Program-made: the position numbers and the translations under genes
Shown here: positions 22,866 to 62,914 of the stretch, piece after piece
Numbering within the stretch: the stretch's first letter is position 1
Layout: each line of letters begins with the position of its first letter
The notes under the pieces: generated by a model
Seen by the model: only the letters and a program-made list of their open reading frames with translations
Told to the model about the DNA's origin: nothing
Database searches by the model: none
Source: Sphyrna mokarran
Lineage: Eukaryota
DNA length: 64,000 nt
Direction: 5' to 3'
Assembly: GCA_024679065.1 (NCBI GenBank)
Contig: JAGIQG010000013.1
Span: 15,376,001-15,440,000 of the forward strand

Positions 22866-23201
22866 CAATGTGGAGATGCCAACAATGGACTGGGGTAAAC
22901 ACGGTAAGAAGTCTCACAACACCAGGTTAAAGTCCAACAGGCTTATTTGGTAGCAAAAACCACTGGCTTTTGGAGCCTTGCTGCCTCTTTGTCAGGTGAG
23001 TGGGAGTTCTATTCACAAACAGGGCATACGAAGACAAAGCTCAATTTACAAAATAATGATTTGTGTTTTTATATGCCCTGTTTGTGAATTGAAATCCCAC
23101 TCATCTGACAAAGGGGTGGCAAGCACTCCGAAAGCTAGTGGTTTTTGCTACCAAATAAACCTGTCGGACTTTAACCTGGTGTTGTGAGACTTTTTACAAT
23201 A
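22866..23201. mobile_element. Miniature palindromic PLE derivative with 13-bp TSD
   Basis: Inverted arms with decayed hammerhead cores (~22961-23003 minus, ~23097-23141 plus) and the tail on the left. TSD TTCAATTTTGCCA at 22853-22865 and 23202-23214. Confidence 0.82.
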
Positions 23202-24110
23202 TTCAATTTTGCCAACAAGTGTGTTGTACTTTATCAAACAAATTATGAAAGACTATGTACACACAATGCCAGCACTGTCATCAACCCACCTCACCGTTAC
23301 CTCATCAGTAGACTCAGTTGGGAATGATTTTGTCCTTGAGGAATATACTGCTGGCTCTGATTTATTAAGCGAGGCTTGTCCAAGTGGCTGGTAAATTTCT
23401 CCTCAATGATTGTTTCCATTTCGCAGCTCAGGCTTTGATTTGATTTATTATTGTCATATTTATTTGTGTACAGTGGGAAATATTGTTTCTTGCACACTAT
23501 ATGGACAGTGCTTACCATTCATAGAGAACAAAAGGAGAGGATGCCAAATGTAGTGTTACAGTCATAGCTAGAGTGCAGAGAAAGATCAAATTAATGCGAG
23601 GTAGGTCCACTTAAATGGCTGAAGGAAGAAGCTGTTCTTGTGTTGGTTGGTACGTAACCTAAGACTTTTGTTTCATTTCCCTGAAGGAAGAAGGTGGAAG
23701 AGAGAATGTCCGGGGTGCGTGGGATCATGAGTTATGCTGACTGCTTTGCCGAGACAGCGGGAAGTGTAGACACAGTCACTCTGATTTCCAGATTTCCACC
23801 TCACTGTTCCTTCATCAGACAACACAGTCAGGAACGATTTTGCCCTTGAGGAATGTGTTGCTGCCTCTCATTTATTAACCCAGGCTTGTCCAAGTGGTTG
23901 GCAACTTTCTCCTCAATGACTGTTCCCATTTCCAGCATTGATATTAAACACTCTGGCCTGTGATTTCCAGACTTATGCTGTTTTCTTTTCTTGAACAAGG
24001 ATGTAACATTTGCAATCCTTTGGCATCAGCCCTGAATCTCAAGATGATCAGAAGGCTGTGGCCAGGATCTCCACAATTTCTATTCTATTTTAATTCAGCA
24101 ACCTCCATCT

Positions 24111-25648
24111 GGGCTTATCTACTTTAATATTTGCAGCCTTCCCGTTACTTCCTTCTGTTTTTATCTCCAGCATCCCAGCAACCCAATTCCTTATCAGCTC
24201 CACCACTCCTCTAACAATCTTTGTACTGTTAATTTGCCTATAGGCTATCCTTTTATAGAAGCATAAAATGACACAGCACAAAAGGTTCCATTTGGCCCAT
24301 CCTGTCTCTGTTAGCACTTGGAAAGATCTATTCAATTAATCCCATTGCCCTGTTCTTACTCTTCAAGGTTATTTATTAGTGTCACAGGTAGGCTTACCTT
24401 AATATTGTCATGAAGTTACTGAGAAAATCCCCTACCCGCCACGCTCCGGTGCCTGTTCAGGTACACTGAGGGAGAGTTTAGCATGGCCAGTGCACCCAAC
24501 CGATACATCTTTTGGATAGTGGGGGGAAACCGGAGCAACCAGAGGAAACCCACATAAACATGGGGAGAATGTGCAAACTCTGCACAGACATTAACCCAAG
24601 CTGGGAATTGAACCTGGGTCCATGGCGCTATGAGGCAGCAATGCTAACCACTGTGTCATCATGCTGCCCAAGGCACCATTTTCCCAATATATCCAAGTCC
24701 CTTTATTCGGTTATTCCTGAACCTATTTCTACCACCTTTTCGTGCAGTGCATTCTGGACGATAATAACTGGCTGCATAAAAATATTCTCATTTCTGATTA
24801 TTTTCTCTTCTATCAGGAGGAACAGTCTCTCTGTTCACTCTGTCAAATCGCCTGATGGTTGTACTGAATCTTCCCTAATGTCTCTGTTCTTCAGGAGAAC
24901 ACCCCCAGCCTCCCTTTCTCTCCAGATATTTGAAGTTCAGCATTCCGAGTAACATTCTAAGGAAGCTCCTGTGCATCATCTCTTCTTGACATCTTTCTTA
25001 AAATACACTCACCCAAAATTGAACACAGCTGAGGCCTGACCAATGATTTATAAAGGCTTAGCCTAACTTCACTTTGTCATCATTCCTTCTAGATTGCAGT
25101 GAGTGGGTGAGATTCCCTGACCTCCTAACTGCATGTTTCCTGATGGTGGGAGGTGGCACCTTGCTGATTAGCAGTGGGATTCTCTGGTTCCACCACTGTC
25201 AATGGGAATTCCTACTACCGTGCTGGTGGGAAGCCTGCAGATGGGGTCCACGCCAACGGGACTGGAGAATCCCACCAGCATGAATGGCCAGAAAATTACA
25301 GCCTTTATCATTATTTTTTCGAGTAGGGGATTTTCACAGTAATTTCATTATAGTGTTAATGGAAGTCTACCTGTGACACTAATAAATAACCTTTGAAGAA
25401 TAAGAACAGGGCAATGGGATTAATTGAATAGATCTTTCCAAGTGTTAGCAGAGACAGGATGAGCCAATGGAACCCTTTTGTACTGTGTCATTTTATGCTT
25501 CTATAAAAGGATAGCCTATAGGCAAATTAACAGTAAAAAGATTATTAGAGGAGTGGTGGAGTTGAAAAGGAATTGGGTTGCCAGGATACCAGAGATAAAA
25601 ACAGGGGGAAGCACTAGGAAAGCTGCAAGTATTAAAGTAGATCAGCCC
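24111..25648. repeat. Local inverted duplication with ~330-bp arms
   Basis: 24111-24437 vs 25321-25648; the ORF track shows matching translations on opposite strands. Confidence 0.9.
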
Positions 25649-26769
25649 GGATGCTTTGTTCACTTCATTTACAAAATTCTTCATCTATACCTTACAGCCG
25701 TTCTGAGTTCCACTATTTTCTGCTTATTCCCTCTTCTCCAACTTTTTCCATTCTCCCAAGAATATGATTACAGTCTATGTCAGCTCCAGGCTAGGCCTTT
25801 GGATTCTTGACACTGTTCACATATTTTCGTTCCACCATTACATTGTGCAGTTGAAATTTCCCTACATTGGCAAATACCTTCCAGGTATATCATATTCTTT
25901 CATGATGCCAAAACCATATCTTTGTGATCACAAGTCCCATTCAATAATGATCACCCAAAGAAAGAAGCCAAAGTCATACAGTTGACTTTTGCACAATTAA
26001 TCTGATTGTCCATCCATCGAGGGTTGTGTTGTAAGTTAAAACAAAGGATGGGAAGGCACTACATGGAACGTAGAGTCATAGAATCATAGAGTGCAGAAGG
26101 ATTCTGCATTGACCACAACTCCACCCAGGCCCTATCCCCATAACTCCATGTATTTACCATAGCTAGTTCCCTTGACACTAATGGGCAATTTAGCATGGCC
26201 AATCTGTCTAATGTGCACATCTTTGGACTATGGGAGGAAACCAGACCATCCAGAGGAAATCCACACAGACACAGGAAGAACGTGCAGACTCCACACAGTC
26301 AGTGACACAAGCTAGGAATCAAACCCAGGTCCCTACTGCCGAGGGGCAGCAGTGCTAACCACTGTGCCATTGTGTCACCTATAACGGTGATCAGTTGGGA
26401 ATTCCAGGGGGAAAGAGGGACAAGGGAAGATGCATGAATGCAGTTGAGAGAATGGACAGGAATCATGGGGGGAATCTTCCATGCAACCGGAGAGATAGAC
26501 AACTCATAAGAAATATGTACATGGGACAAACAGCAATCATGGGAATCAGAACCAGTTACAATCAGAAGAGAAGTTTGACAATAGCATCATTTAGCCCCAG
26601 TCCACTTCGATATCCATGCAAAAGAAATGATCACAGAGACGATTGAAAACAGAAAATGTTCAGATTTCTTTGAGAAACAGTGGGTTGGGATTTTGGAGAT
26701 GACAAAGAATCATAGAATCCGACAGTGCAGAAGGAGGCCATCCAGCCTATCAAGTCTGCAGCGACCAAT

Positions 26770-27600
26770 TGCAACAGGATCTTGATCAATTGGGTCAGTG
26801 GGCTGACGAATGAAGGGTAGAGTTTAATTTAAATAAATGTGAGGTGATGCATTTTGGTAGATTGAACCAGGGCAGGACTTAGTTAATGGTAGGGCATCGA
26901 GGAGAGTTATAGAACAAAAAGATCTAGACGTACATGTTCATAGCTCCTTGAAAGTGGAGTCACAGATGGACAGAATGGTGAAGAAGGCATTTGGCATGCT
27001 TGGTTTCATCGGTCAGAACATTGAATACAGGAGTTGGAATGTCTTGTTGAAGCTGTGCAAGACATTGGTAAGGCCACATTTGGAATACTGTGTACAATTC
27101 TGGTTACTCTACTATAGAAACGACATTATTAAACTAGAAAGAGCGCAGAAAAGATTTACTAGGACGCTACCGGGAATTGATGGATTGAATTATAAATAGA
27201 CAATGGATAAACTGGAACTTTTTCTCTGGAGTATAGGAGGTTGAGGGGTGATCTTATAGAGATCTATAAAATAATGAGGGGCACAGGTCAGCTAGATAGT
27301 CAATATCTTTTCCCAAAGGTAGGAGAGTCTAAAACTAGAAGGCATAGGTTTAAGGTGATAGGGGAGAGATACAAAAGTGTCCAAAAGAACAATTCTTTCA
27401 CACAAAGGATGGTGAGTGTCTGGAACAAGCTGTCAGAGGTAGTAGTAGAGGCAGGTACATTTAGAAAGTTACATGGGTACGATGGCTATAGAGGGATATG
27501 GGCCAAATGTGGGCAATTGGGATTAGTTTAGGGGTTTTCAAAAAAAAAGGGCGCATGGCAAGTTGGGCCGAAGATGTTTCCATGCTGTAAACTTCTATGA
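26770..27600 (+). mobile_element. CR1 LINE 3' fragment
   Basis: LVRPHLEYCVQFW, LERAQKRFTRTLPG and RGDLIEIYKIMRG motifs. Confidence 0.9.
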
Positions 27601-62350: not shown

Positions 62351-62511
62351 TTCTATCTTGGTAAAGACATATTCAAAGGACTTAATTAATACACCAGCTA
62401 TGCTCCCCACTTCCATGCATAGATCCCCTTTTAGATCCTAATTAGCCCCAGAATTAGCTAACAGAAAATAGAGGTAAATGGGTCATTTTTGCAATGACAA
62501 ACTGCAACACA

Positions 62512-62642
62512 GGGGGTGGTATTTTATGGCTTTGCTCATCCCAAGACCATAAAATCCTGCTCGAGGTCAATGAACTTTCCATGCTCCGCCCCTTGCCTGC
62601 TCCAACTCCTGTGGTGGGCAAGGGATGGTAAAATTCCAGCCT
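62512..62642. mobile_element. Short GC-rich MITE-like element
   Basis: Imperfect terminal inverted repeats GG..GGTATTTTA / TAAAATTCCAGCC. Related ~110-160 bp copies at ~67-130, ~6943-7020, ~11568-11690, ~47155-47270, ~52160-52275 and ~55170-55330. Confidence 0.55.
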
Positions 62643-62738
62643 TGAAATGCCACAGGAATCAGTGCCATAGCCTCGATTATTTCCAATCTGTACCAATGAC
62701 CTGGATAAGTCACTAAGTTTGCTGATCACACAAAGACA

Positions 62739-62914
62739 AGTAATCTCACAACACCAGATTAAAGCCCATCAGGTTTATTTGGTAGCACGAGCTTCTGGAG
62801 CACTGCCTCTCTGAAAACTCATGCTGCCAAATAAACCTGGTGGACTTTAACTTGATCTTGTGAGACTTCTTACTGTGTCCCCCTGAGTCCAATGCCGGCA
62901 TCTCCTCATCATGG
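62739..62914. mobile_element. Miniature palindromic PLE derivative inserted into a CR1 fragment
   Basis: Inverted arms with the tail on the right. TSD ACACAAAGACA at 62728-62738 and 62915-62925, interrupting the decayed KFADDTK motif of a CR1 RT. Confidence 0.8.

Follow-up and report, generated by a model that had tools for sequence, protein, structure and literature searches.

Head-to-head Penelope-like insertions in Sphyrna mokarran pair a tailed with a tailless arm within a symmetric target

Six insertions in a 64-kb stretch of the Sphyrna mokarran genome (contig JAGIQG010000013.1; hereafter the window, to whose positions coordinates refer), together with copies sampled genome-wide, represent a known kind of insertion with new, testable mechanistic detail. 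Their symmetric target and their heterotypic pairing of one tailed and one tailless arm suggest a two-subunit enzyme, with one RNA likely copied from both cut ends at once. The head-to-head layout itself is already published (available parts of PMC3846280 and PMC8557442).

The window holds six copies of the tail and no more, with an inverted partner at each (6/6). All six are head-to-head, 5'-truncated 3' ends of a Penelope-like element (PLE), as an earlier note on this DNA had described, and the flanking direct repeats (TSDs) of 11, 12 and 13 bp that it called exact were confirmed at the copies starting at 62739, 34857 and 22866. By self-BLAST, the two arms are 85% (22866), 86% (28631), 67% (29346), 98% (34857), 73% (44446) or 74% (62739) identical, and the copies belong to several subfamilies of differing ages. 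They appear to be dead remnants without sign of host function. The features are as follows.

34857-37557: 2.7-kb head-to-head PLE insertion of a young subfamily, arms 98% complementary
34845-34856, + strand: its left TSD, 12 bp; TG before it at 34841-34842 is the left half-site
34857-36354, - strand: its tailless arm, reference 1557-3036
34908-34947, - strand: hammerhead motif in the tailless arm
35165-35701, - strand: open frame, Cys linker plus GIY-YIG endonuclease region (Pfam GIY-YIG falls on the same region of copy L073)
36330-36557: central junction, where two 5' truncation points in RT-coding sequence lie at a distance of 176 nt
36357-37557, + strand: its tailed arm, reference 1381-1581, then 2090-3074
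37426-37465, + strand: minimal type I hammerhead motif in the pseudo-LTR (pLTR) of the tailed arm, a motif reading
37517-37557, + strand: its tail, ending at the ORF ATG (37554-37556); putative RT start site 1
37558-37569, + strand: its right TSD, 12 bp, exact; CA after it at 37572-37573 is the right half-site
22866-23201: older head-to-head insertion, tail at left (- strand), both target half-sites, hammerhead motif at 23099-23143
22853-22865 and 23202-23214: its TSD, 13 bp, exact
28631-28816: head-to-head insertion, tail at right, hammerhead motif at 28689-28726
28621-28630 and 28814-28823: its TSD, 10 bp, 1 mismatch
29346-29481: 136-bp head-to-head insertion, tail at left, both target half-sites
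29333-29344 and 29482-29493: its TSD, 12 bp, 1 mismatch
44446-44644: old head-to-head insertion, tail at left, decayed TSD, no evident target motif
44434-44445 and 44644-44655: its TSD, 12 bp, 2 mismatches
62739-62914: old head-to-head insertion, tail at right, left target half-site only
62728-62738 and 62915-62925: its TSD, 11 bp, exact

The arms of the 2.7-kb copy are joined at 36354/36357 with two unassigned bases between them, and its tailed arm lacks ~508 nt between reference positions 1581 and 2090 (deletion joint 36556/36557). The short arm stops ~36-38 nt before the tail end in five of the six copies. The exception is 28631, whose short arm falls ~73 nt short and whose left TSD is clipped too, likely by a deletion after insertion.

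Judged by its Cys-linker motif and domains, the source element is a Neptune/Nematis-type EN+ PLE. The PLE origin proposed earlier agrees with the RVT_1, GIY-YIG and hammerhead motifs found here. The unit measures 2,994 nt from ATG to ATG; its ORF starts at this ATG in copies L073 and L080, both of which are broken by frameshifts. Pfam matches on L073 comprise RVT_1 (E=1e-9, a single ORF with a PLE-type RT) and GIY-YIG (22.8 bits, against a cut-off of 22.6). Of the endonuclease CCHH, two Cys lie between the counterparts of GIY and YIG; His, Arg, Glu and Asn are visible downstream, and the upstream linker reads CX4CX2C. This arrangement fits Neptune/Nematis, for which the accessible part of PMC8557442 gives a GIY-YIG with CCHH at the C terminus and, ahead of it, a CX2-5CxxC linker. 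A search for relatives yielded 619 at E<=1e-30, many of ~850-900 aa, and returned no named Neptune/Nematis reference elements. The same part of PMC8557442 carries the hypothesis that the Neptune linker mediates a microsatellite insertion bias, whereas the shark family, whose kinship to this clade is judged by the linker, targets a non-repetitive palindromic motif. A pLTR formed by partial tandem, an inverted copy and a 30-40-bp tail, the marks of EN+ PLEs, are all present.

A type I minimal hammerhead is predicted in the pLTR from its CTGAnGA/GAAA core and from stems I and II, which co-vary by eye across 145 variants; an Rfam scan of 34700-37700 gave no match, and the call is a motif reading. 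Non-LTR retrozymes were rejected as a classification. These are head-to-tail tandem hammerhead units without an ORF, according to the available part of bioRxiv 10.64898/2026.07.22.740005, whereas the shark copies consist of truncated ends, single or head-to-head, from a unit that bears an ORF. The tail had been taken for the RNA's 3' end. However, it forms the following unit's 5' leader, ending at the ORF ATG (L073 and L080 show tail, then ORF), and thus both RT starts would be internal.

The genome contains 3,556 exact tails and 7,880 pLTR-end matches. Insertions were classed in a tail-anchored sample (n=90) and a pLTR-anchored sample not selected for the tail (n=70). The former yields single arms at 21/90 loci and a paired rate of 64/90, with 3/90 ambiguous; the latter yields 33/70 single arms, comprising 16 tailed and 17 tailless copies. 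Eight of these tailless solos carry their own TSDs. From the two samples, single-arm copies seem to make up about half of all insertions. The proposal that the palindrome is obligate therefore fails, as both tailed and tailless single-arm copies with flanking TSDs are common. Unpaired tails are indeed absent from the window, but not from the tail-anchored sample, and at its paired rate six of six pairs would arise with a probability of ~0.13; the window thus does not show obligacy.

Where two arms are present, they are almost always of different kinds: 36/36 pairs in the pLTR-anchored sample and 64/66 in the tail-anchored sample join a tailed to a tailless arm. Free choice of start would make about half of the pairs homotypic, and 36/36 would then have a probability of 0.5^36. 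The lone tail/tail copy, L130, has inverted host flanks as well, and the partner arm of L155 stops 73 nt short. Precision of the short-arm stop, claimed from the window, holds for five of its copies, whereas genome-wide the ends spread over 31-44 nt from the tail end in 80/81 pairs (6 of 87 failed the alignment filter).

TSDs below ~10 bp were left out by design, and 47/130 loci have no accepted TSD; the 83 accepted became 81 on removal of false calls at L090 and L130. L229, whose target is not covered, was left out of the target analysis. TSD length is 12-13 bp in 66/81, and these TSDs sit inside a palindromic target, TG-N16/17-CA. These 66 sites offer 132 half-sites, of which 90 have CA at +3/+4, versus a 7.7% background, and the TG-to-CA spacing is 16 or 17 at 58/67 sites with both. 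Both half-sites are present in only 30/67 sites, or 51 if a 1-nt slip is allowed. In the older subfamily, CA occurs in 8/11 and TG in 5/11. The earlier note had mentioned neither the symmetric motif nor the near-fixed TSD length.

With nick positions set by the target motif (n=68 per end; 5000 swaps), primer-RNA microhomology averages 1.84 nt versus 0.46 nt at the tail end (swap maximum 1.0) and 1.38 nt versus 0.47 nt at the tailless end (swap maximum 0.79). The earlier suggestion of two defined start positions is supported. MFE folds around the two sites varied with the folding window chosen.

We hypothesize that a dimer nicks both strands, that both ends prime on one RNA ~37 nt apart, and that the cDNAs are end-joined, a course of events that we regard as probable. 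A protein, likely dimeric, would nick both strands of the symmetric target 12-13 bp apart, each nick lying 2 nt 5' of CA(G/T) and leaving a 3' overhang. Each overhang would pair over ~1-3 nt with the RNA at one of two places: site 1, the AUG, or site 2, ~37 nt upstream of it. The leading cDNA may be displaced by the trailing RT, both RTs may often halt near one RNA point, and microhomology-mediated joining could close the centre. If only one end primes on RNA, with the second annealing to the end of the cDNA, an ordinary single-arm copy would result. In L1 twin priming, both target ends also prime on one RNA and microhomology joins the products, which are non-duplicated 5' inversions at variable internal sites. 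In contrast, the two shark primers would both begin close to one end, at fixed sites, and the outcome would be an inverted duplication.

An N-terminal homodimer of the family protein is predicted by modelling of L073 residues 1-300 (score 0.41 against 0.00 for the best of three controls; a minimum of 25% of contacts common to the runs, pLDDT 58 or more, interface 42-76). The mark used to call dimers is reached by 21/30 solved pairs and 0/23 single chains in a microbial benchmark, and 17/29 pairs and 0/30 single chains in eukaryotes, where animals give 7/16 and pairs without an older solved relative 1/7; a pass may reflect memory. More tentatively, at a little below even confidence, we propose that this homodimer reads TG-N16/17-CA in the manner of a restriction enzyme, cuts with a 12-13-nt 3' stagger, and places the two overhangs by short primer-template pairing on two registers of a single RNA in the manner of telomerase.

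The 5' ends of paired arms (n=85; two pairs too complex were left out) correlate (rho 0.77) and lie within 20 nt of each other in 40/85 pairs, versus 10.8 by permutation (maximum 23). Among short pairs, 28/48 have ends within 10 nt (9.4 expected). Coincidence is weak among long pairs (4/37 versus 1.4, p=0.044; in the positional sample alone 3/22, p=0.066, rho 0.15). The correlation thus depends on the short copies, where later central deletion of palindromes, or selection, could have produced it. The ends cluster broadly at 2920-2949 and 2980-2999. Cleavage-defined run-off was rejected as unsupported, since 5' ends show no accumulation where the ribozyme is predicted to cut (reference 2978/2979) and several copies read through it.

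A less probable but credible reading keeps the double nick and invokes two RNAs or two sequential rounds, with an asymmetric complex, or RNA dimerisation through the hammerhead, holding the two registers. It accounts equally well for the symmetric target, for heterotypy and for the finding that either arm may be the longer, and the weak end correlation of long pairs suits it. In its favour too, stem III of the shark hammerhead is palindromic, of the dimer type (PMC4209133). An arm's nearest sequence is its own partner in only 24/54 pairs, and private variants (49 shared between arms versus 427 single-arm) are compatible with one RNA or two. By itself, however, this reading leaves the excess of coincident short pairs unexplained, and it needs an added rule to ban homotypic pairs.

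Self-priming or fold-back of the cDNA (or an antisense template) after one TPRT, with endonuclease resolution leaving a one-sided tail, is a route proposed in the available parts of PMC3846280 and PMC8557442; we consider it unlikely here. It predicts a common source and correlated ends, and it fits the near-perfect central palindromes (31/85 within 10 nt) and the junctions that fall on a natural palindrome at reference 2925-2932. However, the tailless arm reaches further 5' in 22/85 pairs and there holds sequence missing from the tailed arm, which itself holds the tail; in L215, L226, L227 and L231 the tailless arm is full-length and the tailed arm short. In pairs of this kind, neither arm can be a DNA copy of its partner. 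The expectation from DNA fold-back that the tailed arm is always longer was rejected (23 versus 22 pairs). Microhomology at the tailless end and tailless solos with their own TSDs also speak against this route. These findings support two RNA-templated arms joined centrally, as the earlier note had supposed.

A still more improbable alternative accepts the arms as in the concerted model and ascribes the end correlation and short palindromes to post-insertion events (cruciform deletion, gene conversion, selection or assembly bias). The mostly asymmetric spacers of long pairs and the internal deletions or secondary insertions of several copies are in its favour, but it cannot make the TSD length, target motif, heterotypy or microhomology. 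That the small palindromes are MITE-like non-autonomous units amplifying as fixed elements is hardly tenable despite their short size, terminal inverted repeats and TSDs, given 83 distinct junctions among 85 pairs (26 overlaps, 7 blunt, 52 insertions; two repeated junctions lie on self-complementary template spots) and a continuum of sizes from 64 to 5491 bp whose long copies hold RT-EN coding sequence, in line with the reading that the earlier note had favoured.

Adineta vaga Pen2/Pen2a (PMC3846280; scheme in PMC8557442), as described in the available parts, resemble the shark copies in their inverted, 5'-truncated head-to-head copy with a TSD, one-sided tail running toward the ORF start, partial tandems and junction palindromes. 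The tail there is 30-40 bp and TSDs of 8-10 bp are cited, with length called variable, whereas shark TSDs of 12-13 bp lie in TG-N16/17-CA; those parts give no symmetric motif. Poseidon PAc, from Anolis carolinensis, has a tail bounded in vitro by two internal RT start sites; both of its target strands are nicked and extended, and a dimer is predicted (Frangieh et al. 2024, PMC11167929). The shark family shares with PAc the two internal starts, a predicted N-terminal helical homodimer, a hammerhead near the start and, putatively, both-strand nicking. PAc, of the Penelope/Poseidon clade, prefers ATT and starts 111-118 nt into the ORF, whereas the shark family, of the Cys-linker clade, would start at the AUG and 37 nt before it, on a CA-based symmetric target with 1-3 nt of microhomology and tailed-tailless pairs; no primer-template homology is reported for PAc. 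The PAc start site is alike on both strands and the initiation site 'not homologous' to the target (PMC11167929), data that count against concerted priming from two registers, yet PAc belongs to another clade.

The literature searched contained no 12-13-bp TSD in a TG-N16/17-CA target, although earlier PLE papers may describe target preferences, and no report of a tailed-tailless pairing rule, of primer-RNA microhomology at both starts, or of correlated 5' ends with either arm longer. The three text supplements of PMC11167929 mention no tail, inverted or target site; its figures S1-S2 may bear on target logos and pairing.

The origin of tandem and inverted PLE structures is called an open problem in the available part of PMC8557442, and steps after initiation were left unvalidated in PMC11167929. 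If true, concerted twin TPRT would account at once for three PLE features that have long lacked an explanation: the TSD, the inverted pLTR and the tail on one side. Thousands of genomic products carry a sharp signature of the DNA substrate, the cut geometry and two RNA start registers, which makes the question of PLE integration testable in vitro and in other PLE-rich genomes. An element of this kind, writing from the two ends of a staggered break, would also be of interest for insertion tools.

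The earlier note proposed that the window holds six paired insertions of a Penelope-like element (PLE), each with two inverted arms joined head-to-head, one carrying an extra end (the tail) and the other (tailless) ending, in five of the six, ~35–41 nt earlier. Direct reading of the six loci (starting at 22866, 28631, 29346, 34857, 44446 and 62739) and BLAST of the element's 3' end against the window, which finds an inverted partial copy beside each of the six tails, confirm this, and the target-site duplication (TSD) lengths and short-arm ends reported there match. The copy at 28631 is an exception, with clipping of both the short arm and the TSD on the left. 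The arms of the 2.7-kb copy (34857–37557) are 98% complementary, with ~508 nt deleted from the tailed arm. The window also carries an inverted duplication of apparently non-PLE DNA at 24106–25653 (261-nt arms, 89%, spacer ~700 nt), one arm of which is interrupted by a dispersed repeat of roughly 300 nt (24367–24664).

Searches of the 2.77-Gb genome yielded near-full-length copies when 35 of 40 scored look-alikes were retrieved at 9 kb, and one of these (L073) was taken as the natural reference. The nearest named proteins to that of the element are from sharks, and its cysteine linker is of the type that marks Neptune and Nematis in the accessible part of PMC8557442. The tail proves to be the 5' leader belonging to the next unit downstream, and it terminates at the start codon. 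A minimal hammerhead, of a type described in the available text of PMC4209133, lies ~90–130 nt upstream of the ATG, and its stems co-vary across subfamilies; Rfam gave no detection of it. One copy (L080, oriented 4977–7998) spans exactly one unit, ATG to ATG, within an 11-bp TSD. Eight further copies continue past the ATG into the upstream pseudo-LTR (pLTR) by 50–800 nt, which indicates a tandem or circular RNA template.

The genome contains 3,556 exact copies of the 34-nt tail and 7,880 matches to a pLTR-end pattern, and 1,614 of 3,809 exact 32-nt pLTR ends show an exact 14-nt continuation into the tail. The first 92 tail matches on one contig (C1) represent 90 insertions, which were classed by script and checked by eye: 64 are head-to-head pairs of a tailed and a tailless arm, 21 are single arms, one has a partner 73 nt short, one is tail/tail with inverted host flanks, and three are unclear. 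The first 87 pLTR-end-pattern matches, taken with no selection for the tail, represent 70 insertions, comprising 36 such pairs, one borderline case and 16 tailed and 17 tailless solos, with no homotypic pair among them. Because single arms make up 21/90 and 33/70 insertions in the two samples, the suggestion that the palindrome is an obligate product is refuted. Paired insertions can be drawn twice in the pLTR-anchored sample, from which we estimate that ~60–70% of arms are paired, and thus that palindromes account for roughly half of the insertions. An inverted partner lies within 1.5 kb of 19 of 30 tails in an older subfamily. Where pairs form, heterotypy is near-strict. The only tail/tail copy (L130:3247–3764) looks more like a rearrangement than a clean insertion, since the host flanks on both sides carry an inversion of ~150 nt. 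Two near-solo copies (L233:1040–3295 and L061) retain, immediately within the TSD, a stub of 5–7 nt from the opposite end, as though second priming had aborted at once. Another (L189) holds, inside one 12-bp TSD, an inverted tailless arm, a direct tailless partial and then a tailed copy, an order that suggests a template jump back to the second start site.

TSDs were accepted at 83 of 130 loci and two were then discarded as false. The lengths of the remaining 81, with repeats under ~10 bp excluded by design, are 9 (1), 10 (3), 11 (2), 12 (31), 13 (35), 14 (8) and 15 bp (1). In the flanks, TG precedes the TSD at a distance of two bases and CA follows it at the same distance. Of 132 half-sites, 90 have CA at +3/+4, vs a 7.7% background, and in 79 of these 90 the next base is G or T; in 58 of 67 cases, TG and CA are spaced 16 or 17 apart. 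The motif is present at the two half-sites in 42 and 37 of 55 paired copies, in 7 and 4 of 11 unpaired or other copies, and at both in three of the six window copies. Target-primed reverse transcription requires a 3'-OH. Given this requirement and the flanking motif, each strand would be nicked 2 nt 5' of CA, leaving 3' overhangs of 12–13 nt. The shark family does not fit the scheme in the accessible part of PMC8557442, where PLE TSD length is variable and set by a second nick after reverse transcription.

Among 81 mapped pairs, the tailless arm falls short by 31–44 nt in 80 and by 35–41 nt in 64. Microhomology was measured as overlap of the TSD end with the continuing sequence of the element, with nicks fixed by the motif (n = 68 at each end). 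At the tail end, overlap averages 1.84 nt (null 0.46, maximum 1.0); the tailless end averages 1.38 nt (null 0.47, maximum 0.79). Short primer-template pairing thus seems to determine which position within each range serves as the start. In some subfamilies, a GCCAG word resembling a target half-site lies ~12 nt before the short-arm end (window 37497–37516 region; e.g. 28766–28770), which might bear on self-insertion.

We favour, as the probable explanation, a reading in which a dimer would cut the symmetric site, both overhangs would act as primers on a single RNA (one at the AUG, the other ~37 nt upstream), and microhomology would join the two cDNA ends; failure of one end to prime on RNA would leave a single-arm copy. 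A homodimer model of residues 1–300 scores 0.41 (best control 0.00), with ≥25% of contacts common to the runs, a pLDDT of ≥58 and no use of the alignment. This mark is reached by 21/30 pairs and 0/23 single chains in a microbial benchmark, and by 17/29 pairs (animals 7/16; 1/7 without an older solved relative) and 0/30 single chains in a eukaryotic one, and passing it may reflect memorisation by the predictor.

Junctions could be mapped in 85 pairs (64 positional, 21 similarity-ranked). The 5' ends of the two arms correlate (rho 0.77) and lie ≤20 nt apart in 40 pairs vs 10.8 expected; for positional pairs alone, rho is 0.72, with 34/64 vs 10.2 expected. This coincidence is strong in short pairs and weak in long ones (4/37, p = 0.044). 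An arm's own partner is closer to it than the median copy, which fits one RNA as well as two. Priming on two RNAs in fixed registers is a credible, though clearly less likely, alternative. The longer arm is tailed in 23 pairs and tailless in 22, and some copies join a full-length tailless arm to a short tailed partner, which implies that both arms need RNA; generation of one arm by fold-back is improbable. Overlaps (26), blunt joins (7) and insertions (52), many apparently copied from adjoining sequence, make up the junctions. We give little credence to a centre shaped by later remodelling. The central junctions of L110, L192 and L081 contain element sequence repeated in short tandems or nested inversions, resembling iterative templated insertions. 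With 83 of 85 junctions distinct, amplification as a MITE is scarcely plausible.

In the accessible text of PMC3846280, inverted pLTRs with a tail and TSD are called typical and self-priming is proposed; that of PMC8557442 ascribes a 30–40-bp tail to resolution by the endonuclease and treats the mechanism as unsettled; that of PMC11167929 shows that two internal start sites bound the tail and that both strands are nicked and extended, and predicts a dimer. The architecture is thus a known PLE footprint, and the proposal that both target strands prime at two RNA positions is partly supported, without its obligacy. The literature searched, which covers older key work incompletely, yielded no report of strict tailed-tailless pairing or primer microhomology in PLEs, nor of a symmetric target or fixed 12–13-bp stagger, an absence that is uncertain. 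Target symmetry, the pairing rule and microhomology are the new detail, and they make the PLE integration mechanism directly testable.
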